The notes beneath the pieces were generated by a model. It had not been told where the DNA came from and did not search any database. It was given only the letters and a program-made list of their open reading frames with translations. Positions 3,825 through 26,780 of a stretch of 64,000 nucleotides of DNA are shown here, one piece after another; position 1 is the first letter of the stretch; each line of letters opens with the position of its first letter. Made by a program: the position numbers and the translations under genes. The stretch is from an uncultured Pseudomonadota bacterium. Lineage in GTDB: Bacteria > Pseudomonadota > Gammaproteobacteria > CAJXQU01. Location: positions 502,886-566,885 of the forward strand of contig CAJXQU010000001.1 of the NCBI GenBank assembly GCA_913058255.1. The letters run 5' to 3'.

Positions 3825-4810
<986 letters not shown>

Positions 4811-4844
4811 TTATGTTTGTTATAGGGGAAGAGCTGTTTTAAGT

Positions 4845-5192
4845 TTATAAAATATCGAGCACAGACTCAGGTGGGCGACCAATTGCAGCTTTACCATTAC
4901 TGACAACAATAGGGCGCTCGATGAGGATAGGGTTTTCAACCATCGCCTTGATCAGCTGCTCATCACTGAGGCTATCATCGGCAAGATTATTTTCGTTGTA
5001 TGCTGCTTCACCTTTACGCATCAATTCACGTGGAGCAAGGTTTAACATCGTAAGAAGGTTTTGAACGATAGCGACATCCGGTATGGTTTTTAAATATTCA
5101 ACCACTTCGGGTTCGATGCCTTTTTCCTCAAGTAGTGCTAAAGTTTGTCGAGATTTTGAACAACGAGAATTATGATAAATAGTGACGCTCAT
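4845..5192 (-). CDS. ArsC/Spx-family thioredoxin-fold protein (YffB-like arsenate reductase homologue)
   Basis: 115 aa with an N-terminal IYHNxxCSKSR motif characteristic of the ArsC family. Confidence 0.65.
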   Translation of the reverse strand: MSVTIYHNSRCSKSRQTLALLEEKGIEPEVVEYLKTIPDVAIVQNLLTMLNLAPRELMRKGEAAYNENNLADDSLSDEQLIKAMVENPILIERPIVVSNGKAAIGRPPESVLDIL

Positions 5193-5233
5193 CTTTTATG
5201 GGTTCCTGTTTTAGAGTTTGAGAATATTTTAAT

Positions 5234-6475
5234 ATGAATTTTGCTCCAGTGCAGATTATTTCAAAACTTAGTGAATTACGAGACTTTTTGATCTTTGTAA
5301 AAAAACATTTTACAGCCGATAACTGTGTTCGAACCGCAGCATCACTCTCCTACACGTCATTATTGTCGCTTGTACCTATGATGGCGGTCATGTTCTCGAC
5401 TTTAGCGGCTTTCCCTGTTTTCCAAGGTATCGAACATGATATTGAGGCTTTTATTTTTAATAACTTTGTTCCAGCATTAGGACAAACTGTTCAAACTTAT
5501 ATGCATGAGTTTAGTGAAAAAGCATCAGGTTTACGTGCGGTTGGGGTTTGTTTTCTATTCGTTACAGTGTTGGCGATGATGAATACCATTGAAGCGGCTT
5601 TTAATGCGATCTGGCGTGTACGCACAAAACGTAAACCAGCAACACGTTTCATGACATATTGGGCTATTTTAACACTAGGGCCGTTGTTGGTTGGAACAGG
5701 TTTTGTTGCGACATCTTATCTTGTGTCATTGCCTATCTTTAGCGAGGTTGATCAGACCTTAGGGCTTAAGCGTAAGTTCTTAATTTTATTTCCTTTTCTG
5801 ACGACTACACTTGCTTTTTTTGTCATTTATCGCTTGTTGCCGAATCGAGTAGTGTCGGCTAAAAGTGCCATTATTGGTGGGCTGGTGGCGGGCATTTTAT
5901 TTGAAATTGCAAAAAGATTGTTTGCTTATTACGTCGTTCATTTTCCTAGCCAGCAGGCAGTCTATGGCGCATTTGCAACGATTCCCATTTTCTTACTCTG
6001 GATTTACCTATCGTGGCTGGTCATCCTGTTCGGTGCTGAAATTACACGCTGCCATATGATTTATCATCGTTATGTGGGCAAGGTTAATGAAGGTAACCGA
6101 AATATGTTTGTAGATGCCTACCGGATTACAGGACAACTTTGGAAAGGACAGATCGCGAGTCAACCACGCACAGTATCCGATTTGCTCGTGCACGAACCAG
6201 ATATGAATGATGATCGCGTTTATGAAATATTACGTGCCTTGCGCGAAGCCGGTTGGGTACAACGTACTGAAGAGGGTGGCTGGATTTTGTTGCGAGATCT
6301 TAGTGATGAAACCTTGTTGAATTTATATCAAACATTGCCGGGAGGATTGCCGCTGTCAGGTCAAGAACTGATCAGAGAAGATGTGTGGAATCAGCGATTA
6401 TTCACGGAGCTTGGAAAAGCATTCGGAAGCTTGGAATTATCGATGAAAGCTTCGTTAAAATCACTCTACGAATAA
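5234..6475 (+). CDS. YihY/BrkB family inner-membrane protein (formerly called RNase BN) with a C-terminal soluble extension
   Basis: Six hydrophobic segments in the pattern of the YihY family (SLSYTSLLSLVP... start). The ~120-aa hydrophilic C-terminus resembles a winged-helix extension. Confidence 0.6.
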   Translation: MNFAPVQIISKLSELRDFLIFVKKHFTADNCVRTAASLSYTSLLSLVPMMAVMFSTLAAFPVFQGIEHDIEAFIFNNFVPALGQTVQTYMHEFSEKASGLRAVGVCFLFVTVLAMMNTIEAAFNAIWRVRTKRKPATRFMTYWAILTLGPLLVGTGFVATSYLVSLPIFSEVDQTLGLKRKFLILFPFLTTTLAFFVIYRLLPNRVVSAKSAIIGGLVAGILFEIAKRLFAYYVVHFPSQQAVYGAFATIPIFLLWIYLSWLVILFGAEITRCHMIYHRYVGKVNEGNRNMFVDAYRITGQLWKGQIASQPRTVSDLLVHEPDMNDDRVYEILRALREAGWVQRTEEGGWILLRDLSDETLLNLYQTLPGGLPLSGQELIREDVWNQRLFTELGKAFGSLELSMKASLKSLYE

Positions 6476-6698
6476 TAATCCGTTAGATAAAGTGATGTCC
6501 AAAAGCACATGGTTATATCCAAGTAAAAAGCTGGAATTGGAGTAACGGGGATGTGGGAATGAAGTACATTTTGTACAATGAAGAAGCTTCGGTGGATTGC
6601 CTAGCTCTACCTGTTTATGAATAGCAACTGAGTCCCGACAGCGATGGTTTGAGCTGCCGGGAGAGCTGAGGTTTAGATTGGTTGCGCGTAAAAAGGTT

Positions 6699-8408
6699 CT
6701 AGCCAAGTAACTTTTGAGTGATAAATGATCTCGCTTCAGCAGCATCAATATCGGTGCTTTCCGAATCTCGGCGGCCTTTATATTCCATTTGACCCGCATC
6801 TAATCCACGATCACTGAGCACTAAACGGTGAGGAATTCCGATCAACTCCAGATCGTTAAACATCACTCCTGGGCGCTCTTTTTTGTCGCAGAGTAGAACG
6901 TCAAAACCTGCTTGCATAAACTCAGTATAGAGCTGCTCTGCCGTTTCTTTGACCCGATCCGATTTATGTGCGTTGACGGGAACGATGGCAAGTTGGAAAG
7001 GTGCAATGGCATCAGGCCAGATAATGCCTGACTCGTCGTAGTTTTGTTCAATAGCGGAGGCCACGACACGAGAAACTCCAATGCCGTAACAGCCCATGAT
7101 CATATCGATCGCTTTTCCATTTTCGTCCAGACAGTTGGCTTTCATGCTTTTGCTGTACTTATCTCCTAGTTGAAAGATATGTCCAACTTCAATTCCTTTC
7201 GCGATCTGAATCGTCCCTTCACCATCTGGGCTGGCTTCGCCTTCTTCGATATTGCGAATATCTGCAACGATGGGTTCTGCCAGATCACGCTCCCAATTAA
7301 CGCCTGTTAAATGTTTACCATCTTCATTTGCACCACATGCAAAATCAGCGACTACGGCAGCAGAGTGATCAACCACGACAGGAATTTCAAGCCCGACAGG
7401 TCCAATGGAGCCAACAGAGCAACCAAGTGCTTGTTTGATTTTTTCAGCATCGGCAAAGCTGAAAGGTGATGAAACCTGTTCAATCTTTTCAGCTTTTATG
7501 GGATTCAACACATGGTCACCACGGATCACCAACGCGACCAGCGAATCATCTTCGCCTTCAACGATCAGTGTTTTGAGACATTGCTTAGACTCAATGGCTA
7601 AGTGTTTGCAGACTTCTTCAATGCTGTGCTGTCCGGGTGTGTCAACAGTACTCATCTCTTGAGCGGCTGTTGGACGTGGTTGATCGGGCAATGGAGCAGG
7701 GGTTAGTTCGACGTTAGATGCGTACTCACTTTCGGTACTGAAGGCGATATCATCTTCACCGGATTCAGCTAACACATGAAACTCATGAGAGGCGCTGCCA
7801 CCAATGTTACCGGTATCGGCTTCGACAGCACGGAATTTTAGACCTAGGCGAGAAAAAATACGCGAATAGGCGGCGAACATCACATCATAGGTGGCTTGTA
7901 ATGACTCCTGATCAAGGTGAAAAGAGTAGGCATCTTTCATCAAAAATTCACGTGAGCGCATGATACCGAAACGTGGACGGATCTCATCACGAAATTTAGT
8001 TTGAATTTGATAAAAGTTTGCTGGTAGCTGTTTATAGCTTCTGATCTCATTTCTGACTAAAGAAGTGATCACTTCCTCCGCCGTAGGGCCGTAGCAAAAC
8101 TCTCTATTATGTCGGTCAGAGATTCTAAGTAGCTCCGGACCATATTGCTCCCATCGACCAGACTCTTCCCATAAACCAGCGGGCTGCACAGAAGGCATCA
8201 ACAGTTCCTGAGCACCGGCGAGATCCATCTCTTCGCGAACGATCTTTTCTACTTTACGCAAAACTTTTAGGCCTAGTGGCAGCCATGAGTAAATGCCTGA
8301 GGCGGTTTGTCGGATCATTCCGGCACGTAACATAAGTTGATGACTGATGACTTCGGCATCAGCAGGAGCATCTCTAAGGGTTGGTAGTAAAAGGTTTGAT
8401 AATCGCAT
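6699..8408 (-). CDS. proS: Proline--tRNA ligase
   Basis: 569 aa, bacterial-type ProRS with insertion (editing) domain. Class II motifs and the conserved MRLSxxLLPTLRD N-terminus. Confidence 0.9.
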
Positions 8409-17367: not shown

Positions 17368-18270
17368 ATGACAGATTACCCAACAATTGCAGATTTTGTC
17401 GGCAACACACCTTTAGTACGCTTACAACGCCTACCGTCGCAACAAGGACATTCAAGTAATACTATCCTTGTTAAATTAGAAGGTGATAATCCGGCAGGTT
17501 CAGTTAAAGATCGACCGGCGATCAACATGATCAATCGCGCAGAAGAACGCGGTGATATTAAACCCGGTGATACTCTCATAGAAGCTACAAGTGGTAATAC
17601 TGGAATAGCTCTGGCAATGGCGGCAGCGATCAAGGGTTATAGAATGATTCTGATCATGCCGGATAATATGAGTGAAGAACGACGCGCTTCAATGAAAGCA
17701 TACGGTGCCGAAATTATTCTTACGCCAGCAGAAGGAAGCATGGAGTCTGCAATAGATAAGTCACGAGAGATGGAAGCTGAAGGTATTGGTAAGGTCTTAG
17801 ACCAGTTTTCAAATCAAGATAACCCACTTTCTCATTTTGAAGGAACAGGCCCCGAAATTTGGCGTGATACTAAGGGAAAGATTACTCATTTTGTCAGCTC
17901 AATGGGAACAACAGGGACAATCATGGGAACGTCTAAATATTTAAAGAGTGTGAATTCTGACGTTCAAATAATTGGAGTTCAACCGGAAGGCGATGCTAGC
18001 ATCCCGGGCATTCGACGTTGGCCAGAAGAATATCTACCAAAAATTTATGATAGCCGTCGTGTTGATCGCGTTATGGATATGGATCAACAAACAGCTGAGA
18101 ATACGATGCGAGACATGGGAGCAAAGGAAGGGATCTTCTGTGGTGTTTCTTCTGGGGGGGGCGTTGCGGCAGCATTGAGGCTCTCTAACGAAGTGGAAAA
18201 TGCTGTCATCGTCGTGATTGTATGTGATCGGGGCGATCGTTATATATCCACTGGAGTTTTCCCCGGCTGA
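17368..18270 (+). CDS. cysM: Cysteine synthase B
   Basis: Collinear with the E. coli CysM sequence as recalled from memory (GNTPLVxLQR, SVKDRxA PLP-lysine, TSGNTG, GIFCGVSSGG). 300 aa. Confidence 0.85.
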   Translation: MTDYPTIADFVGNTPLVRLQRLPSQQGHSSNTILVKLEGDNPAGSVKDRPAINMINRAEERGDIKPGDTLIEATSGNTGIALAMAAAIKGYRMILIMPDNMSEERRASMKAYGAEIILTPAEGSMESAIDKSREMEAEGIGKVLDQFSNQDNPLSHFEGTGPEIWRDTKGKITHFVSSMGTTGTIMGTSKYLKSVNSDVQIIGVQPEGDASIPGIRRWPEEYLPKIYDSRRVDRVMDMDQQTAENTMRDMGAKEGIFCGVSSGGGVAAALRLSNEVENAVIVVIVCDRGDRYISTGVFPG

Positions 18271-18277
18271 TCTGATG

Positions 18278-20383
18278 CGTTTATTTCGCTTGATCTGCCT
18301 ATTAGTCTCAAGTGTTTTTTTCTCTAATATTTATGCTATTGAGAAACTAAATGTTGAGATTGAACAAGCTGAGTTTTCGGGCTGGCAATTTGAATCGGTA
18401 CACATTGACTTTGATCTCTCATCTCAGCCGTTATCTACAGAAAATGTTACGACGCCACATATTTCTATTTCTATCGATAAGCTAATTTCGAAACAAAATG
18501 AAACCTTTAAGAACATTAAAATTGCCTGTCCTTTAGCTTCATTTGAACATGTCCTGCAGTTTGATCTAATTGAGTGTCAGTCCGGATATTTTTCCGCGAA
18601 GCATAATCTACTAGGAAGGCTAGAAGGAAGGTTAGACTTTACCTTAGATACTGAAAATGAAAAACTTGAGGCGAATATTACGACTTTTAAACTGGCTGGC
18701 GGTTCTGTCGATCTAAAAATAAATGCTAAGAAAGGTGAGTGGAAGGTTGATCTTAAAGGTCGCTCACTGGATGTGGAGAAATTAAAAAAACTTCTAGCCT
18801 CTTTTGTAACATTACCGAATGTAACATCAGAAGAAACGGGAAAGATTAACCTTCAACTGAAAGCCAATGGACGAGGAGAGAATTTACGTTCAGCAAGAAT
18901 TAATATTAGAACATTTGATTTAGGTTTTGATGGCAATTCGGTAGCGGAAGAACTTGATGCAAAAATCAATATTTTATTAGAAAGAAAAGATGAGGAGTGG
19001 TTGATAAAGCAAGAGATTAGCTTGTTAGATGGCGCGGTTTATATAGAGCCTGGAGTTGAGGTTGGAGCAGTCAAACCGGGGTTTCTACTGGAGGTAGGAC
19101 AACAACCGATTACCCTTGTCATAGAAGCCGGTTGGAAAGAAGCGCGTATCCAAATTGATAAACTAACCTTTACTCACCCTGATGTGATAGCTATTAATAT
19201 CGAAGGCATTATATCTCCGGAAAATAATTCTCCGGTTGATGAACTATCCATGTCGATCTATACACAAGATTTAAATGCCGTATTTCCTACTTATCTTCAG
19301 CCGCTTTTATTTGGATCGGGCTTAGACGAAATAGAAATTATTGGCCAGATGGATCTAAAAATACAGCTACGGGAAAGTAGCATTACAGATTTTCATTTAG
19401 TGCTTGATGATGTTTATGCTGACGATCAGGCAAGCCGATTTCATATCGCTGGATTGAATGGCGATGTGCGTTTAAATAGTGATCCCAATGTAAAGGACTC
19501 GACAATGACATGGCAAGGTGGATCAATTTATCAGGTTAATATCGGTGCTAGTGATATGAAGTTATCTTCCAAAGGACGCTCGATGAAGTTGCGTGAAAAA
19601 ATGCGTATTCCTATCTTTGACGGTGAGCTTCAGGTTAATGATCTGGAAATGAGAAAGCTTGGCTTAGAAGACTATTCTGTACGAATCGAAAGCACACTAA
19701 CACCGATTACATTAAGCGAGTTTACAGAAGCGATAGGCTGGCCGATCATGGCGGGGAATATTTCTGGTGAAATTCCGGGTGTTACATACAATCAAGGCGA
19801 CTTGACTACAGAGGGTCGGTTAAGAGTGAGTGTTTTTGATGGTGACATTACGATTAGCCATCTTTGGATCGAAGATTTATTTGATTTAATCCCAACGCTT
19901 TATGCTGATATTGCCATAAAGAACATTGATCTAGGAATATTAACCAAAACATTTGAATTCGGAGATATAACCGGCCGGCTTGATGGCTATATGAATAATT
20001 TGCGTTTAGATAACTGGGAGCCTGTTCAGTTCGATGCGAAGCTTGCCACTCCTGAAAAAGATGACTCCAGACACCGTATCAGTCAACGTGCTATTGATAA
20101 TATAACGAGCATTGGCGGCGGTGGTTCGGATGTTGTCTCTCGTGGAATATTAGGTGTGTTTGAGGATTTTCCCTATTCTAAAATTGGCCTTAGTTGCCGT
20201 CTGATCGATAGCGTTTGTTTTATGAGTGGTGTCGAGAAAATTGAAAATGGTTATTATATTGTTAAGCGTGGTTTTCTGCCTCCTTGGTTAAATATAAAAG
20301 GTTACAATGATAAAGTTGATTGGCCAGAGCTATTAGACCGGTTGCAGAATATCTCTGAAACAGACAGTCCTACCATAGAATAA
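18278..20383 (+). CDS. Large secreted/periplasmic protein of unknown function (possibly AsmA/YdbH-like)
   Basis: Start moved to the Met preceding a clear signal peptide (MRLFRLICLLVSSVFFSNIYA). ~700 aa, mostly beta-rich. The ORF-track start overlaps cysM. The family call is weak. Confidence 0.35.
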   Translation, partial: RLFRLICLLVSSVFFSNIYAIEKLNVEIEQAEFSGWQFESVHIDFDLSSQPLSTENVTTPHISISIDKLISKQNETFKNIKIACPLASFEHVLQFDLIECQSGYFSAKHNLLGRLEGRLDFTLDTENEKLEANITTFKLAGGSVDLKINAKKGEWKVDLKGRSLDVEKLKKLLASFVTLPNVTSEETGKINLQLKANGRGENLRSARINIRTFDLGFDGNSVAEELDAKINILLERKDEEWLIKQEISLLDGAVYIEPGVEVGAVKPGFLLEVGQQPITLVIEAGWKEARIQIDKLTFTHPDVIAINIEGIISPENNSPVDELSMSIYTQDLNAVFPTYLQPLLFGSGLDEIEIIGQMDLKIQLRESSITDFHLVLDDVYADDQASRFHIAGLNGDVRLNSDPNVKDSTMTWQGGSIYQVNIGASDMKLSSKGRSMKLREKMRIPIFDGELQVNDLEMRKLGLEDYSVRIESTLTPITLSEFTEAIGWPIMAGNISGEIPGVTYNQGDLTTEGRLRVSVFDGDITISHLWIEDLFDLIPTLYADIAIKNIDLGILTKTFEFGDITGRLDGYMNNLRLDNWEPVQFDAKLATPEKDDSRHRISQRAIDNITSIGGGGSDVVSRGILGVFEDFPYSKIGLSCRLIDSVCFMSGVEKIENGYYIVKRGFLPPWLNIKGYNDKVDWPELLDRLQNISETDSPTIE

Positions 20384-20647
20384 AACTCGCCGAGTTTTAT
20401 TAAAGTAAATTCTCGAATAAACCGTATATCCATAAATAACTTAACAAAAACTGAACAGAAACTTAACAAAAAATTATCAAAATTTGACAAAGGTAAATGG
20501 AGTGAGTTAAAAGTGATCTTGCGCTTGATGTAGGGGCAAGGAGAAAAGCCTTTGTTAATCCTTTCGATATTCTTCTGAAAAGGGTTTTACTCCAAAATAA
20601 AGCTATCGCGCGTAGCTAAATAATAATTATGGAAGGGAGTATTTGTA

Positions 20648-21991
20648 ATGCTATTTTTATGTAATTTATGGCCTTGGTTAGCAGGTGGCTTGCTCGGGTG
20701 GTTGCTCAGTGGTTGGTTGGCTCGACGGTTAAAATATGGAGAGCCTCCTGTCGAAAAAATTGTAGAGAAAACAGTGGAAGTTGAAAAAGTTATCGACAAC
20801 CCAAAGCACCTCTCTCTCATATCTCAACTTGAAAATGAAAATCGTCAAATAGACGAGCTCAAAATGAGAGTTTCTGAATTTGAAAAATCAGAAGCCGATA
20901 TAGCGGATCTGATTAAAAAAGAAGGTGTTAGTGCGAATGGTGGGCTGCGCTCACAATTCACGCATTTGATTAGTGGCTTTAGAACAAAAATTTCTGATCA
21001 TGAAGGAAAGCAGCCCGGAATAGTTGAGAAGATTGTTGAAAAGCAGGTCGATAATCCTGAGCACTTAATACGAATTAGATTACTTGAAGAAGAAAACGCG
21101 CAGATCAATGGGCTGCAAGCAACGATCACAACATTAGAAAACCGAAGACCAACGACGATAGAAAAAATTGTTGAGAAAGAAGTAGAAAAACGAGTCGATA
21201 ATCCTGCTCACTTAAATCGCATCAAATTACTTGAAGATGAGTTGGAAATATGGAGAAGAACCCCTTCTATTAATTTACCTGCAGCACGAGCATCTGGAAT
21301 TGTTATTAAGGCCGAGGATGATTTCACTGCTATTGAAGGAATTGGGCCGAAGATTAGTGAGCTGATTCATGCAGATGGTATTCATACATTCAGGGAGTTA
21401 TCTGAAACTGAGCCCACTCGTATTCAAAGCATTCTAGATAAAGCAGGAACAAATTTCCAGATGGCTAACCCTGGAACGTGGCCTGATCAGGCAAACTTGG
21501 CATCATCAAATCGATGGCCGGCGCTCAAAGCTTTACAAGATATTTTGGATGGTGGTGTTTATCCCGATCTGTCTGCGGAACGTGCAGCATTAACAAGCAG
21601 TAATGCGCAGGATACCGCTAAAATTGAGGCGTTAGAAGACGAGTTGGCTGCTTATCGATTAGCTGAAACTCAAACTGCCTCCGTTGCTGATATTGCAGCT
21701 GCAAAAGCGGCTGGATTTAAAGTTAGACGCCAAGGTAGCCATGATGATTTTACCGTCATTGAGGGAGTTGGACCGAAGATTGATGAATTAATCCATGCTG
21801 GAAATATTCATACCTATAGTCAACTTGCCTCAACTTCCATAGTAGTCATTCAAAAAATATTGGATGATGCAGGGGCGAATTTTGTTCTTGCAAAACCGGA
21901 CACATGGCCAGCCCAATCTGATCTAGCAGCCAAAAACCAGTGGATAGATTTAATGAAATGGCAAGATGAGTTAGACGGAGGCAAGGAATAG
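20648..21991 (+). CDS. Membrane-anchored repeat protein: three EKIVEK-xVDNPxHL coiled repeats plus two C-terminal HhH-like (IEGIGPKI) modules
   Basis: N-terminal Trp/Gly-rich TM helix. Three ~45-aa repeats (VEKIVEKTVEVEKVIDNPKHL / IVEKIVEKQVDNPEHL / IEKIVEKEVEKRVDNPAHL, each followed by LLE[ED]E). Two ~100-aa repeats containing DDFTxIEGxGPKIxELIHAxxIHT and PxTWPxQ. Confidence 0.5.
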   Translation: MLFLCNLWPWLAGGLLGWLLSGWLARRLKYGEPPVEKIVEKTVEVEKVIDNPKHLSLISQLENENRQIDELKMRVSEFEKSEADIADLIKKEGVSANGGLRSQFTHLISGFRTKISDHEGKQPGIVEKIVEKQVDNPEHLIRIRLLEEENAQINGLQATITTLENRRPTTIEKIVEKEVEKRVDNPAHLNRIKLLEDELEIWRRTPSINLPAARASGIVIKAEDDFTAIEGIGPKISELIHADGIHTFRELSETEPTRIQSILDKAGTNFQMANPGTWPDQANLASSNRWPALKALQDILDGGVYPDLSAERAALTSSNAQDTAKIEALEDELAAYRLAETQTASVADIAAAKAAGFKVRRQGSHDDFTVIEGVGPKIDELIHAGNIHTYSQLASTSIVVIQKILDDAGANFVLAKPDTWPAQSDLAAKNQWIDLMKWQDELDGGKE

Positions 21992-21993
21992 TC

Positions 21994-23508
21994 ATGGAAT
22001 ACAATAAAGAAGAATATATCTCACCTCAATGGCCGGGTTTTCGCCGAGCCTGGTGGATTGTTGCGATAATCCTGTTTATCTTATTGCTACTGATGTGGCT
22101 CATGGGGTATGGACCAGGAGGTAAGGCCTGCAAAGTTCCTGCAGAAGTCCGTACGGTTGAAAAACTAGTTGCAGCGCCTGATGTGACGGCTCCACTGATC
22201 ACTTTGAATGACCTGTCGGTGTTAAATCTCGTTAGAGGTGAAAAGTATGTTGAAGCTGGAGCAAGAGCTATCGACGGCACAGATGGGAATATGACCGTGA
22301 TGACGAGCGGTGAGGTTGATACGAGTAAAGTCGGTGAATATATCGTCACTTACACAGTCATAGATGCTGCGGGTAACAGTACGACAGAGACTAGAAAAGT
22401 TACTGTGACTGAGCCTGTTGATACAGCAGCACCTGAGATCAAATTAAAGGGTGAGTCGATCGTTTATTTAAAAGCAGGTGAAAAATATATAGATGCCGGC
22501 GCCGATGGAACTGATCTTATTGATGGGAAGCTTTCAGTCGAGTCGAAAGGCAAAGTGGACACCTCGAAAGCTGGGGAATATGTGATTTCATATCGAGTGA
22601 CGGATGAAGCTGGTAACCATGCAACAGCAACTCGTAAAGTGGTTGTCATTGCTCCTGATAATGAGGCTCCAATTATAAGTTTGAATGATGCATCTGTTAT
22701 CTATTTGAAATCCGATGAAACGTACATTGAAGCCGGAGCAAAAGCTGTTGATGCTAATGACGGAGATCTCCAGATTACGACTGAAGGTGCGGTCGACACA
22801 AACAAAGCTGGCGAATATATTATCACTTATAAAGTGACAGACTCAGCTGGTAATGTTGCTACAAAAACTAGGAGAGTCATTGTTACGGTTGCAGATGACA
22901 TTGATCCTGTTATCAGCCTCAATGGTTCCTCTGTTTTATATTTAGAACGAGGTGAGAGTTATACTGAAGCTGGTGCTAAAGCATACGATAATAATGATGG
23001 TGCCGTGAAAGTTATTGCTAGTGGTTTTGTTGATACTAATAAGGTGGGCAGTTATTTACTGAGTTATACAGCAGTTGATAAAACGGGAAACAGAGCAACA
23101 GCGACACGTAAGATTATTGTTTCGCCCCGCGCAACGACAAACCTCGCTGAACCAACGTCTCCAACCGTTATTTCTGAGTCTACAAAGGAAGTAATGCCTA
23201 GTACGAAACTGTATTTTGGTTTGGATAAAGATGACAATCCGAGGGATACAGATAAATCATTAGCAACGGTAATTGAATACTTGAAGACTAACAGCAAATC
23301 GAGAGCTTCCATCTCGGGTTTTCATGACCCAAGTGGCCATCATGCCTATAACAAAGATTTAGCGAATCGACGTGCGAAAACGGTAATGATGATGTTGAAT
23401 ACTGCAGGAATTTCTGCAGAACGAATCGTGATACAGAAGCCTGTAGAAACGACAGGAACAGGCTCGCCTAAAGAAGCTCGTCGTGTGGAAGTCTCTATCG
23501 TGAAGTAA
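21994..23508 (+). CDS. Membrane-anchored protein with four tandem Ig-like (DUF5011-type) repeats and a C-terminal OmpA-like peptidoglycan-binding domain
   Basis: N-terminal TM helix. Four ~80-aa repeats with the pattern D..AP.I.L.G.S..YL..GE.Y.EAGA.A.D..DG.L.V...G.VDT.K.G.Y.I.Y.VTD.AGN.AT.TRKV.V. The C-terminus has OmpA-like hallmarks (NxxLAxRRAxxV, ARRVE). Starts 3 nt after the preceding gene. Confidence 0.55.
   Translation: MEYNKEEYISPQWPGFRRAWWIVAIILFILLLLMWLMGYGPGGKACKVPAEVRTVEKLVAAPDVTAPLITLNDLSVLNLVRGEKYVEAGARAIDGTDGNMTVMTSGEVDTSKVGEYIVTYTVIDAAGNSTTETRKVTVTEPVDTAAPEIKLKGESIVYLKAGEKYIDAGADGTDLIDGKLSVESKGKVDTSKAGEYVISYRVTDEAGNHATATRKVVVIAPDNEAPIISLNDASVIYLKSDETYIEAGAKAVDANDGDLQITTEGAVDTNKAGEYIITYKVTDSAGNVATKTRRVIVTVADDIDPVISLNGSSVLYLERGESYTEAGAKAYDNNDGAVKVIASGFVDTNKVGSYLLSYTAVDKTGNRATATRKIIVSPRATTNLAEPTSPTVISESTKEVMPSTKLYFGLDKDDNPRDTDKSLATVIEYLKTNSKSRASISGFHDPSGHHAYNKDLANRRAKTVMMMLNTAGISAERIVIQKPVETTGTGSPKEARRVEVSIVK
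22183..23134 (+). repeat. Four tandem ~240-bp coding repeats (Ig-like modules) inside the 21994-23508 gene
   Basis: The protein-level repeat units recur with conserved spacing. The units have diverged, not identical copies. Confidence 0.6.
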
Positions 23509-23586: not shown

Positions 23587-24363
23587 TTAAAACCAATAAG
23601 ATAACCCCAGATGTGTACGTAGTTCAATGTCAGAACTGGATGTTAACGGGCTCTGTGTGATCGTACTTGGTAAATGCTCGTACATTAGGCCGCCTTTTAG
23701 TGAAAAGTGTTTAGCAATACGAGTTTTTACTTCAACGCCAAAGAAAGGAATCAGTGCTGAGTTTCCTTGATGTTTTTTTCTATTGGGAGTGGCTTCAGAA
23801 TTTTTTACGCCATAATAGTAGTCGACTACGTCTTTACTCTGCCAACGAAAACCTCCAGATAAACCAACGGTAAGCTCAGGACCACCATTCCATTTTTCAG
23901 TATAAAATGGCTCTCCAAAACGAATCTCAATTTCTTGACCTTTATGATTGCCCAGAACATCAGAGAGCACATGCAAGCTGAGTAAGCCATAATCAGTTTT
24001 TAAACTCGCACGACCACCAACCTCTAAAGATGATTGACGCTCACCCATTCCTTTTAGAATTGGAGAATCATCGTGTTCGTAACCATAATATAAAGTCTTA
24101 GCTAAAATTTCGAGATTATATTGTTCATTGTTATAAATGCTATATGAGATCGAGTTAGAATCTATATTGAGGCTTTCACCACGATACTCTAAGTGTAAGA
24201 GGACAATATTTTTATTTTTTTGTTCTGTATAAATAGATGAACGTATTGCATTGACACCTAGACCCCATTGTTCTGTAAATAAATCTTCCGCGAAAGAATG
24301 TTTAGGTACAAAAATGAACGTAGAAACTGATAGTATTAGGCATTTTTTTGATAGTGTATTCAT
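23587..24363 (-). CDS. MipA/OmpV-family outer-membrane beta-barrel protein
   Basis: Signal peptide, alternating amphipathic beta-strand pattern, C-terminal aromatic (…LGLSYWF). 258 aa, typical MipA size. Adjacent to a two-component system. Confidence 0.55.
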   Translation of the reverse strand: MNTLSKKCLILSVSTFIFVPKHSFAEDLFTEQWGLGVNAIRSSIYTEQKNKNIVLLHLEYRGESLNIDSNSISYSIYNNEQYNLEILAKTLYYGYEHDDSPILKGMGERQSSLEVGGRASLKTDYGLLSLHVLSDVLGNHKGQEIEIRFGEPFYTEKWNGGPELTVGLSGGFRWQSKDVVDYYYGVKNSEATPNRKKHQGNSALIPFFGVEVKTRIAKHFSLKGGLMYEHLPSTITQSPLTSSSDIELRTHLGLSYWF

Positions 24364-24480: not shown

Positions 24481-26073
24481 TCAAGTTTGAGAATAAATTG
24501 GCCAGCTTAAGGTAAAACAAGCTCCGCCTAAACGTGAGTCAGAAATATGTATTGAACCCTGGTGAGCTTCAATAATTTTTTTTGTAATAGCTAAGCCGAG
24601 ACCATGCCCTCCGGTTTTTCGATGACGACTGATATCAAGTCTAGTGAATGCATTGAAAATACGTTCTCTGTCTTCTACTGGAATACCAATACCATCATCT
24701 TCAATACGGATCTGTAGCAGGTCCTTCTTAACGAAAAGCGATAAGCTTATGGTTTGGTTGCCGTAAAGGCTGGCGTTGCGCAATAGGTTATGAATGGCGC
24801 GAGCAAAATGCCGAGGGTTTATTTGTGTTGTGAGATTGAGAGGTAGACCATTAAAAAAATGTATAAATGTTTTGTCACTCATATAGCTAGATGTTTGTTC
24901 TATTATATTTTCTAGCCAAGGGATAACTTCGATTGTTTCAAAATCCTCTGTAGTTTTTAAACGCTCAAAACGAGCGTAGCGAAGTAGCTCATTAACAAGA
25001 TCTTCTAACTCATCAACATCTGAATTTAAGCCGCCTAGATAACGCTCCCTAGAATCTTCATTACTATTAGATAGCATATCGAGACCAAAACGCATTCGTG
25101 CGATGGGAGTGCGCAACTCATGAGAGACTGCGTTGGTTAATTCACGGTGGCCTGTAACTAGATGACTAACTCGATCAGCCATAGTGTTAAATTGTTGCGC
25201 GAGTTTGCCAAGAGATTTTGTCTTTTTTATATCGGTACGAGCAGTTAATTCACCTCGACCAAAATCATCCGCGGTTTGGCTAATATTCTTTATAGATAAC
25301 CAAAGTGGACGTAACCATAAGAGCAATGCTGTTGCGAGTGAGGCGAGAAAAACTCCAAGTAAAGCTGACATAAATGTCATGAGGCTAATGGGTTGTTTGA
25401 TCGGTCCAAATTGTAAGGTGTAGGGTGAATTTTTCAATTTACCAAAAAATCGCCAACGGTTAGTATTATGGTCAAGTGCTATTACCTTTCCATTCTCCAT
25501 AAGTATTTTTTGTTTTGAAGATAATGAAAGTTCTGAGTCTTTGACCAAACTAATTGGAAAGCCGAAATGAGGTTGCAGGTTTTTGATCAGCTGTACCCAC
25601 GTCGTTTGTGGTGCTTTGAGCAACTCTTGTTCTAGTAGGTAAAATGTTCCTTGAGCTTGTTTATGATCCTCTTCTGTTTGGCTTTCAGAAAATGCGATGG
25701 CTAATACTGAACCAGAATCTTGTAATCTGGAAATATTGTAATTAGCATCATCAATGTCAGGATGTAAAGATTCCCCTGCATTAATTTTGGTCCAATTTTT
25801 TTTATTGATCAGAACATTTTCAGGTTCTAATATCTGTAGGGGATAACCAAAGTGTTCTTGTAAATTATGTAGAGCTTTTTGTTGTTCAGCATTACTTAAG
25901 CCCTTTAATTTTTTATCTAGTAAATAAAATGAGCCACGGGTTAGTTTATCTTCGTATTGATCTATTTTTTTAGATAAAATGATGTCAGGTAGATATTCAA
26001 TTGCTAGAACAAAACCAACCAAAAATACAGTAAGGAATAAAAATAGAGGAAGGAAAATTCTAAACATTACCAA
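24481..26073 (-). CDS. Sensor histidine kinase (two TM helices, HAMP, HisKA, HATPase_c) with ~200-aa periplasmic domain
   Basis: H-box SHELRTPI, with N, G1 (DDGIGI) and G2 (GGHGLGL) boxes. Overlaps the response-regulator stop by 7 nt. Confidence 0.85.
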   Translation of the reverse strand: MVMFRIFLPLFLFLTVFLVGFVLAIEYLPDIILSKKIDQYEDKLTRGSFYLLDKKLKGLSNAEQQKALHNLQEHFGYPLQILEPENVLINKKNWTKINAGESLHPDIDDANYNISRLQDSGSVLAIAFSESQTEEDHKQAQGTFYLLEQELLKAPQTTWVQLIKNLQPHFGFPISLVKDSELSLSSKQKILMENGKVIALDHNTNRWRFFGKLKNSPYTLQFGPIKQPISLMTFMSALLGVFLASLATALLLWLRPLWLSIKNISQTADDFGRGELTARTDIKKTKSLGKLAQQFNTMADRVSHLVTGHRELTNAVSHELRTPIARMRFGLDMLSNSNEDSRERYLGGLNSDVDELEDLVNELLRYARFERLKTTEDFETIEVIPWLENIIEQTSSYMSDKTFIHFFNGLPLNLTTQINPRHFARAIHNLLRNASLYGNQTISLSLFVKKDLLQIRIEDDGIGIPVEDRERIFNAFTRLDISRHRKTGGHGLGLAITKKIIEAHQGSIHISDSRLGGACFTLSWPIYSQT

Positions 26074-26780
26074 GCATCCTTTACAAATAAATAACCTTTA
26101 CCCCAAATGGTTTTAATCTTGTTAGGATGAACAGAGTTATCGCCGAGTTTATTTCTTAATCGAGAAATTCGAATGTCAACCCAGCGATCAAGACCATCGT
26201 AATCAATTTTTCTGACAGCCAGTAATATTTCTTCGCGACCCATGATTTCTCCAGCATGAGAACAGAGGAAGTATAATAAATCAAATTCATTACTGGTGAG
26301 TTCAAGTTCTTTTTGGTCTAAGATTGCTTGGCGCGATGATTGATTAATTTGCAATGAACCAAAATTGAACGTTGTTGTTTGGTCTATGTTTTTCTCGAAC
26401 TTCGTCTGGCGACGCAAAAGTGCATTAACTCTGGCAAGTAAAACACGTGGTTCAACAGGTTTGATCACATAATCATCTGCCCCCAGTTCTAATCCAATAA
26501 TTTGATCAATGTCTTCATCTTTTGCTGACAGAATTAATACCGCCCCTACATATTGAGATTGAACTTGTTTATAAACGTTAAGTCCATCCAAACCTGGAAG
26601 CATAAGATCAAGTATGACTAAATCTGGTTGTTCTGTAATAATTCGACTAACGGCCAGATCCCCACGTGTCTCATGAGAGATAAGGAAGTTACTCTTTTCA
26701 AGATATTCTTTTATCAGATCGGCAAGACGTTGATCATCCTCGATTAATAAGATGTGCTCTTTATTCGTTAAGTTTGACAT
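26067..26780 (-). CDS. OmpR-family response regulator
   Basis: Receiver domain (DD…D…K pattern, ILLIEDD start) plus a winged-helix trans_reg_C C-terminus (RWVDIRISRLRNKL…GKGYLF). Confidence 0.85.
   Translation of the reverse strand: MSNLTNKEHILLIEDDQRLADLIKEYLEKSNFLISHETRGDLAVSRIITEQPDLVILDLMLPGLDGLNVYKQVQSQYVGAVLILSAKDEDIDQIIGLELGADDYVIKPVEPRVLLARVNALLRRQTKFEKNIDQTTTFNFGSLQINQSSRQAILDQKELELTSNEFDLLYFLCSHAGEIMGREEILLAVRKIDYDGLDRWVDIRISRLRNKLGDNSVHPNKIKTIWGKGYLFVKDAW

Follow-up and report, generated by a model that had tools for sequence, protein, structure and literature searches.

A conserved pair of genes for a membrane-anchored protein with helix-hairpin-helix modules and an OmpA-like partner: a candidate tether between cell wall and nucleoid

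What might a membrane-anchored protein made of coiled repeats and duplicated helix-hairpin-helix (HhH) modules be doing beside a protein with immunoglobulin (Ig)-like repeats and an OmpA-like domain? The question is raised by two genes, here called A and B, in a stretch of 64,000 nucleotides (nt) from contig CAJXQU010000001.1 of an uncultured Pseudomonadota bacterium, which we call the window and in which an earlier note had pointed out the unusual build of A. We found that this architecture is real, with a transmembrane (TM) anchor, units of an EKIVEK/DNPxHL repeat, two duplicated C-terminal modules (C-modules) and an Ig/OmpA gene next to it, and that the two genes stay together in unrelated genomic surroundings. 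By analogy with a characterised relative of the modules, A and B may form an inner-membrane complex that is fixed to peptidoglycan and holds nucleoid DNA through the HhH modules of A, a reading to which we would give a probability of roughly 40%. The two genes and their ribosome-binding signals are the following (aa, amino acids).

20631..20639, + strand: Shine-Dalgarno sequence of gene A, GGAAGGGAG, 8 nt before the ATG at 20648, as read from the sequence
20648..21991, + strand: gene A, an open reading frame (ORF) beginning with ATG, 447 aa; predicted bitopic membrane protein with a TM anchor, a repeat stalk and two HhH modules
21977..21981, + strand: Shine-Dalgarno sequence of gene B, GGAGG, within the 3′ end of A
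21994..23508, + strand: gene B, 504 aa; short tail, TM helix, GYGPGGKAC, four Ig-like domains and an OmpA-like domain

The stop codon of A occupies positions 21989-21991 and the ATG of B begins at 21994, which leaves a spacer of 2 nt and not the gap of 3 nt that had been counted before. Given this spacer and the location of the Shine-Dalgarno sequence of B inside A, the two genes are translationally coupled. To see how far the pairing extends, we considered the A-family loci of the window, of three relatives (P0014, P0015 and P0040), of four loci from a metagenome scan (L008-L011), of five deliberately divergent members (P0038, P0059, P0108, P0096 and P0069) and of a basic variant (P0128); apart from the window and L008-L011, these neighbourhoods came from exact-protein look-ups. 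An OmpA-domain gene lies directly downstream of A and on the same strand in 13 of the 13 complete distinct loci, with gaps of -3 to +90 nt, and in the fourteenth (L009) the contig ends after the start of an Ig-like ORF downstream of A. The 13 loci span about 10 unrelated genomic contexts, with flanking genes that are nearly always different, and only one locus (L002) is syntenic with the window. Thus, with differing flanks and a constant order of A and B, the pair behaves as an autonomous cassette, and the co-occurrence of A with its downstream neighbour, on which the earlier note had built, is borne out in many contexts. Within these pairs, B ranges from 203 to 580 aa and holds zero to several Ig domains; in the tabulated pairs, the length of the A stalk shows no correlation with the number of Ig domains in B.

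A search of 5.8 billion proteins returned at least 475 relatives of A with the same plan, namely, a near-invariant N-terminus (FLCKLWPYLAGGLIGWLLxGWFARRLK), one to seven EKIVEK/DNPxHL units and two or three C-modules. A profile of the anchor and first repeat matched 116 clusters, 65 of them at E <= 1e-10, among 1.84 billion representatives, and with only 116 clusters the family seems to be narrow. Its named members come from metagenome-assembled genomes of Cocleimonas/Thiotrichaceae and a few other marine Proteobacteria, the nearest being those from Cocleimonas/Thiotrichaceae, at about 48-53% identity. When genome contigs were scanned with A alone, one distant match was listed, a Saprospiraceae locus (L001) in which two adjacent genes (4312-6237 and 6266-7399) encode module-bearing TM proteins. 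No characterised or curated family takes in the whole of A. A search of plasmids and phages gave no relatives of A, except for a fusion of ribosomal protein L21 with a C-module in Riemerella records, so the cassette does not look as if it were borne by mobile elements. The scan for promoters and terminators found 9 promoter-like sites where 7.1 would be expected, which is not above the level of chance, and it gave no convincing promoter site in the 264-nt gap upstream of A.

The cytoplasmic end of the proposed tether would be the C-terminal half of A, which consists of these parts.

21272..21562, + strand: C-module 1, of the COG3743/PhaH HhH type, aa 209-305; matches Pfam HHH_5 and DUF4332 and the C-terminal regions of the NCBIfam L21, NuoE and PhaH models
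21563..21688, + strand: acidic helical linker between the modules, aa 306-347; helix at 320-341, net charge -5
21689..21982, + strand: C-module 2, aa 348-445; 52% identical to module 1, with PDB matches 8yy9_O and 9wqv_a

The two repeats of about 100 aa that had been described are there, and 98 aa align between them with 52% identity (E 2e-35). Their assignment as HhH modules also holds: at aa 224-262 the Pfam HHH_5 model (PF14520) gives 29.4 bits, marginally above its cut-off of 27 and for one stretch alone, DUF4332 reaches 23.3 bits against 23.2, and the canonical hxxhxGhGPK hairpin appears as IEGIGPK in one module and IEGVGPK in the other. An HhH-type fold is predicted as well by AlphaFold2, which modelled a single module with a predicted local distance difference test (pLDDT) score of 94.4 and a predicted TM-score (pTM) of 0.86, compared to a mean pLDDT of 80.6 over the whole of A. 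Homology to the COG3743/DUF4332 type covers a module of about 95 aa, including the W-x-x-Q-A helix that follows the HhH. Although the combination was not recognised at first, the module itself is of a very widespread type that is also found on NuoE, L21, S2, Urf1/protein-O and PhaH. In a comparison of 36 isolated modules with the corresponding NCBIfam extensions, 32 matched that of L21, 28 that of NuoE, 20 that of S2 and 12 that of PhaH (best E 6.8e-6); module 1 of the window aligns to positions 160-228 of the 234 in the PhaH profile. The repeats did not score strongly to any already characterised family.

The only PDB entries that match the module by sequence are Urf1-type subunits of alphaproteobacterial reaction centre-light-harvesting 1 (RC-LH1) complexes, that is, Urf1/protein-O (8yy9_O and 9wqv_a, E 1e-6 to 1e-7). 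These structures show the N-terminal TM hairpin alone, the module having been cleaved or being disordered (PMC12079452; PMC13066640), so there is no experimental structure of the module, whose function was termed “obscure” in both cryo-electron microscopy papers. A Foldseek search of the PDB gave nothing significant. A profile search with the module found at least 5,777 proteins, nearly all of them unnamed, and the C-module is among the more abundant uncharacterised bacterial domains. Within the A family, it is well conserved, with a mean pairwise identity of 62% and many invariant residues. As for the Riemerella fusions, three records of Riemerella anatipestifer (NZ_CP081938.1, NZ_CP081932.1 and NZ_CP072187.1; H1-H3) carry rplU, the gene for L21, fused to a C-module, and as Riemerella belongs to the Bacteroidota, this fusion is not confined to Alphaproteobacteria. 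These records are of about 100 kb and are labelled as plasmids, yet they carry rplU, which is odd.

At the other end of A lies the membrane anchor.

20648..20734, + strand: N-terminal TM anchor, aa 1-29 (MLFLCNLWPWLAGGLLGWLLSGWLARRLK); Cys5, a small-xxx-small zipper (G13/G17/S21) and basic residues on the C-terminal side only

The Trp/Gly-rich N-terminus that had been taken for a membrane anchor is indeed the sole strongly hydrophobic stretch of A and is modelled by AlphaFold2 as a helix from residue 2 to 29. No other segment of the protein is as well conserved (mean pairwise identity of 69% vs 50% for the stalk); P9, L11, G13, W18, G22 and R26 are invariant across the family, and small residues recur at positions i and i+4 (G13, G17 and S/A21). 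There is no Lys or Arg before the helix and an RRLK motif after it, and the same asymmetry is seen across the superfamily. Furthermore, two relatives with the same anchor and stalk (P0125 and P0128) contain histone-H1-like polylysine linkers with a net charge of +12 to +19, together with basic modules (+7 to +12), and the export of such polylysine segments is very unlikely. In the locus of one of them (P0128; L093, 3001-4854), the OmpA partner is kept and an HNH endonuclease gene comes next. The homologous modules whose location is known (NuoE, L21, S2 and PhaH) are all cytoplasmic, and in Urf1/protein-O the module sits on a hairpin with cytoplasmic termini (PMC12079452). In B, an Arg precedes the TM helix, and the periplasm is where the Ig and OmpA domains must lie. 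Because of the charge asymmetry, the polylysine relatives and the cytoplasmic location of homologous modules, the most likely topology is N-out/C-in for A, with the stalk and modules in the cytoplasm, and N-in/C-out for B. Hence, the geometry implied by the “two-component envelope structure” of the earlier note is probably wrong: the pair would span the inner membrane, with A facing the cytoplasm. An analogue of TolA or TonB was considered for A and rejected on account of the wrong charge orientation and the lack of a family match.

The features of B that matter for this arrangement are its membrane-proximal block and its C-terminal domain.

22018..22131, + strand: membrane-proximal block of B, aa 9-46; ISPxWxGFR tail, TM helix at aa ~19-38, GYGPGG turn and Cys46
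23245..23466, + strand: OmpA-like domain of B, aa 418-491; Pfam OmpA and NCBIfam matches of the Pal/YiaD/YfiB type, putative peptidoglycan binder

The description of B as an Ig-repeat/OmpA-like protein proved accurate, since it has four Bact_surface_Ig-like domains (PF16403, 239.7 bits) and matches Pfam OmpA (PF00691) at 39.1 bits, against a cut-off of 27.2. Two key residues, Asp in GFHDPSG and Arg in NxxLAxRRA (NKDLANRRA in the window), which in domains of this family contact the peptide stem, are kept in 12 of the 12 aligned B partners, and the domain is predicted to bind peptidoglycan non-covalently. The named OmpA-family equivalogs of NCBIfam, which were scored against the whole protein (Pal, MotB, YiaD, YfiB and TssL), all have cut-offs that B misses by far (YiaD 50.1/175, Pal 43.9/125 and MotB 14.1/250), and no curated family names B. 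The best-conserved part of B is its membrane-proximal block (53% vs 44-47%).

The metagenome scan was carried out with patterns of the C-module and thus sampled module-bearing proteins generally. Most of the proteins that it found carry a TM helix at the N-terminus, then a linker and from one to four modules. The helix often combines a Gly-rich face with a Cys at the outer edge and with basic residues that are confined to its C-terminal side. A second, distant type of cassette repeats the A/B layout (L047, L051, L053, L054, L056, L062 and L076), and there are intermediates between the two types (L013 and L016). In this second type, A has only about 200 aa, with a TM helix (GCCFWWFLLGALLGWLL), a Lys/Ala/Pro-rich linker and one module, while B has about 260 aa, with a TM helix, the segment GRGPSSACC, a middle domain of around 100 aa that belongs to no family, and an OmpA domain. 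The linker of these short A proteins is rich in AKP/lysine and their single module is basic; in six loci (L047, L051, L054, L056, L062 and L076), cysteines are also clustered next to the membrane, on the side predicted to be cytoplasmic (for instance, WLCKCC or WLRKCCGSC). Cassettes of this type come from soil and freshwater metagenomes, with the A genes around 4700-5300 or 900-1800. On two other, unrelated contigs, paralogous module-bearing TM genes lie about 3 kb apart (L080, 4938-5537 and 8206-8757; L087, 4908-5507 and 8130-8678).

If A is oriented N-out and B N-in, Cys5 of A and Cys46 of B are both on the periplasmic face of the membrane. A Cys occurs at the outer edge of the TM helix in every A, and 7-10 residues past the TM helix in 12 of the 12 aligned B proteins, and in the short type of cassette both A and B have CC. 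In addition, A and B are both best conserved in their membrane-proximal segments. The combination of these conserved segments, the zipper of A and the paired cysteines suggests that the TM helices of A and B pack together, possibly locked by a disulfide. The conservation of the cytoplasmic ISPxWxGFR motif of B argues against a cleaved signal peptide, given that a conserved N-terminal tail sequence is not a trait of signal peptides. Lipoprotein processing was considered for both proteins and rejected, in A because Cys5 is too near the N-terminus, and in B because there is no lipobox-like L-x-x-C, the Cys follows an eight-residue GYGPGGKA spacer and the N-terminal tail is conserved in sequence.

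Between the anchor and the modules of A lies the stalk.

20747..20845, + strand: stalk unit 1 (EKIVEK...IDNPKHL), aa 34-66; pLDDT <50 in the EKIVEK part, helix beginning at DNP
21014..21100, + strand: stalk unit 2 (EKIVEKQVDNPEHL), aa 123-151; DNA repeat D1
21149..21244, + strand: stalk unit 3 (EKIVEKEVEKRVDNPAHL), aa 168-199; DNA repeats D1/D3

The three units are 50-76% identical in pairs (E 1e-10 to 3e-12), and the repeats of A can still be detected in the DNA at 75-85% identity. The repeat length of about 45 aa that had been proposed applies to units 2 and 3, which are spaced by 45-49 aa, but not to units 1 and 2, which lie about 90 aa apart. Similarly, the description of the stalk as coiled is plausible but not proven: heptad periodicity is significant in the first stalk helix only (17/2000 shuffles), the other helices are not significant, and in the AlphaFold2 prediction the EKIVEK segments are extended or disordered (pLDDT <50), while DNPxHL caps the helix that comes next. 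The EKIVEK-type stalk of one divergent relative (P0059; L089, 4001-5953) has a faint precomputed match to Pfam IMCp (PF12314, the alveolin repeats of inner membrane complex proteins in alveolates), a resemblance that is probably convergent low complexity.

These elements could be assembled as follows. The products of A and B would form one inner-membrane complex in which the N-terminal residues of A, Cys5 included, are periplasmic, its glycine-zipper helix lies in the membrane and the rest is cytoplasmic, with a stalk of variable length in which extended EKIVEK segments alternate with DNPxHL-capped, heptad-like helices and which ends in two HhH modules. B would contribute a cytoplasmic tail, a TM helix and, in the periplasm, the GYGPGG-Cys segment, four Ig-like spacers and the OmpA-like domain, which would fix the complex to peptidoglycan non-covalently. 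The two TM helices would pack against each other, and a periplasmic disulfide may lock them. Finally, the HhH modules would bind nucleoid DNA without sequence specificity, by analogy with the phasin PhaH of Caulobacter crescentus, so that the chromosome (or another nucleic acid) would be pinned to a fixed site on the envelope. According to a review of 2025 (PMC13052382), which cites Salinas et al. 2023, the N-terminus of PhaH binds polyhydroxybutyrate (PHB) granules and its C-terminal HhH binds DNA non-specifically; the same review reports that PhaH spreads PHB granules along the nucleoid, like the histone-like tails of PhaM and PhaF. Moreover, one PhaC2 synthase of Halomonas has a C-terminal COG3743 module where PhaC2 of Cobetia has histone-like AAKP repeats (PMC8686332). 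These reports on PhaH and PhaC2 are the sole functional evidence on the module, and its homology to A is distant.

Several observations weigh against a tethering role. The match to the PhaH model (NF045508) is remote, at 18.8-34.8 bits against a cut-off of 250, and the pairing of cysteines is imperfect, as their number does not always covary between A and B (L013, L088 and L089). Each module of the window has a net charge of -5 and an isoelectric point (pI) of 4.8-5.0, the stalk and the linker each have a net charge of -5 as well, and thus every segment of A is acidic; in the family, the median module charge is -4, with a range of -10 to +12, and 36 of 148 relatives of A carry basic linkers or modules at the position of the inter-module linker. 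The best structural neighbours are the acidic repeats (AR) of NusA, which bind proteins (the C-terminal domain of the alpha subunit of RNA polymerase, or alpha-CTD, and lambda N) and not nucleic acid. Given this acidity, DNA binding by the modules of the window cannot simply be assumed. The remaining difficulty is that the EKIVEK/DNPxHL unit also occurs in the B protein of L091, at aa 55-77 (E 3.6e-10), and comparable runs are found in that of L004:

L091, 5050-5118 (B gene 4888-5748): stalk unit in B, VEEKLIDNPQHLQRIGVLEKENA, just past the TM helix and Cys
L004, B gene 7380-8234: VEKIVE runs in B, VETVEKIVEVEKIVEVEKIVEIP, just past the TM helix and Cys

B of the window itself holds a remnant of the unit, VEKL. 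Since this is a periplasmic part of B, the presence of the unit is unexpected if the stalk of A lies across the membrane; one explanation is that the unit is a generic spacer with a tendency to self-associate, which has shifted between neighbouring genes, and the other is that the stalk of A is periplasmic after all.

How much these points count depends on the explanations that would replace DNA tethering. If the modules were protein-binding adaptors like AR1/AR2 of NusA, with A still cytoplasmic and B still anchored to the wall, they would recruit a cytoplasmic partner to the envelope site (for instance, the alpha-CTD, a ribosome-associated factor or a DNA-processing enzyme) and would not touch DNA themselves. 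A ends in two tandem modules of low pI, just as in AR1/AR2, and the module has been appended to large machines (NuoE, L21, S2 and Urf1), for which docking is as plausible as DNA binding; yet relatives with the same anchor have histone-like polylysine linkers and basic modules, which point to a polyanion as the ligand, and the sole characterised homologue is reported to bind DNA (PMC13052382). We consider such an adaptor a serious, if rather doubtful, alternative. A location of the stalk and modules in the periplasm beside B, with A anchored N-in/C-out as a receptor for extracellular or incoming DNA like ComEA or a spanner like TolA, would explain why the stalk unit is found in a certainly periplasmic part of some B proteins, where the stalks could then pair, and it would suit the acidity of the modules, which many periplasmic proteins share. 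There is also a precedent in ComEA, whose membrane-anchored HhH domains can act outside the cytoplasm. We nevertheless find it unlikely, as throughout the superfamily no basic residue precedes the TM helix of A and three to four follow it, linkers of +12 to +19 stand beside the modules in relatives and would very unlikely be exported, homologous modules of known location are all cytoplasmic (PMC12079452), no match to ComEA-type HHH_3, TolA or TonB families was found in A, and the Cys of A would end up in the cytoplasm, unable to pair with the periplasmic Cys of B.

Two further explanations were considered. A could chiefly be a “plug” in the membrane or an assembly factor, like Urf1, protein-O and protein-3h, with a conserved TM helix that inserts into some other complex of the membrane, modules that are dispensable or cleaved and a link to B that is only regulatory. 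The nearest neighbours of A in the PDB by sequence are the Urf1 subunits of RC-LH1, of which only the TM part is resolved (PMC12079452; PMC13066640), and conservation in A is highest in the TM helix. However, the modules are also strongly conserved (62%) and are duplicated or triplicated, which places them under selection, A has one TM helix and not the U-shaped hairpin of Urf1 (PMC13066640), and B is its sole invariant neighbour, all of which makes this improbable. As for the name given to members of the A family by JGI (COG3743, “predicted flap endonuclease-1-like 5′ DNA nuclease”), the module does resemble the H3TH/HhH element of 5′ nucleases, but that name covers the DNA-binding sub-domain only; neither Pfam nor NCBIfam detects a PIN-like or XPG/5′-3′ exonuclease catalytic domain in A, and outside the TM helix, stalk and modules the AlphaFold2 model leaves no room for one. 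A nuclease is thus extremely improbable, and with no catalytic domain we regard the label as an over-annotation. Tethering of DNA by a wall-anchored complex of A and B stays our preferred, if tentative, reading.

Directly upstream of the cassette lies an ORF of 721 aa with a hydrophobic N-terminus (18218-20383, + strand), for which no Pfam or NCBIfam family was found at E <= 1. The syntenic locus (L002) has a counterpart of 700 aa in the same position, also with no Pfam match; elsewhere the ORF is missing beside the cassette, to which it therefore probably does not belong. On the - strand, convergent with the cassette, there is a gene for an outer-membrane protein of the MipA/OmpV type (23587-24363), which is likewise found downstream of the cassette in L002. 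Beyond it in the window are genes for a histidine kinase (24481-26073) and for a response regulator of the OmpR type (26067-26780), and these two ORFs share 7 nt.

Where the bacterial chromosome lies with respect to the envelope is accounted for mostly by transertion, an indirect coupling, or by a small number of systems that act as polar landmarks. If the proposal is right, A and B would provide a direct mechanical link between cell wall and nucleoid, a functional analogue of the SUN-KASH and LEM bridges of eukaryotes, and a portable two-gene cassette for wall-to-nucleoid tethering would be a new principle. A broader idea, which we put forward as rather doubtful, is that the cassette is a new kind of trans-envelope tether, running from wall to nucleoid through a stalk of adjustable length, and that the far more numerous proteins made of a TM helix, a linker and a COG3743 module, like the modules on NuoE, L21, S2, PhaH and Urf1, belong to a general system that docks membranes and machines onto the nucleoid. 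Apart from the cassette, the C-module is found on complex I, on ribosomal proteins, on photosynthetic core complexes and on PHB granules. For finding its ligand, the family offers a ready comparison set, in which acidic and strongly basic modules share one anchor and polylysine linkers can be set against EKIVEK stalks. Our literature search found no study of this cassette, and in the literature that we searched, neither the obligatory pairing of A with B, nor the conserved TM interface with its cysteines, nor the repeat stalk is described; the C-module as a domain, with one characterised relative, is already known, and the OmpA-like anchor is ordinary.

Among known systems, PhaH is one of the closest. 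Its C-terminal HhH module is homologous to the modules of A, and both would be two-ended tethers, with one end on a cellular structure and the HhH end on nucleoid DNA, as is reported for PhaH (PMC13052382). PhaH differs in being soluble and granule-associated, with a PHB-binding N-terminus and a single module, whereas A has a TM anchor, a repeat stalk, two acidic modules and an obligatory partner of the OmpA type. Indeed, A is not a PhaH, as it scores 34.8 bits against the cut-off of 250 and matches only the C-terminal part of the profile. Urf1, protein-O and protein-3h share the C-terminal module and the general plan of a membrane anchor, a flexible linker and a cytoplasmic module with A, but they form a U-shaped hairpin of two helices inside a photosynthetic core complex, have no OmpA partner and contain none of the EKIVEK/DNPxHL stalk (PMC12079452; PMC13066640). 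A is not one of them, given its single TM helix and neighbours that are unrelated to the nuo genes, Urf1 being located between nuoE and nuoF. The AR1 and AR2 repeats of NusA have no detectable sequence relation to A, which is also without the core domains of NusA, and the module of A has two extra helices with invariant W278, Q281, N288 and W290. A is not of the ComEA type either, as it has no ComEA/HHH_3 match and its charges predict N-out/C-in.

The likeness to ToxR/ToxS, CadC and Noc, and to the LEM/HeH proteins and disulfide-linked SUN-KASH bridges of eukaryotes, is an analogy only, with no relation in sequence or fold. What they share with the proposal for A is that bitopic proteins keep DNA at a membrane. 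ToxRS is a two-gene operon for two bitopic proteins with functionally important periplasmic cysteines; the bacterial examples differ in being sequence-specific regulators of the opposite orientation (N-in), and a partner that binds peptidoglycan is coupled to none of them. The architecture of B, on the other hand, is much like that of MotB/PomB, TssL/TagL and, with a LysM domain, FimV/HubP, all of which have a cytoplasmic tail, a TM helix, a periplasmic spacer and a domain that binds peptidoglycan non-covalently and so immobilises a membrane complex. HubP/FimV in particular couples wall binding to the organisation of the chromosome and the pole. What sets B apart from this class is that its partner is not part of a channel or secretion system and that the cytoplasmic function is carried by a polypeptide of its own, A.

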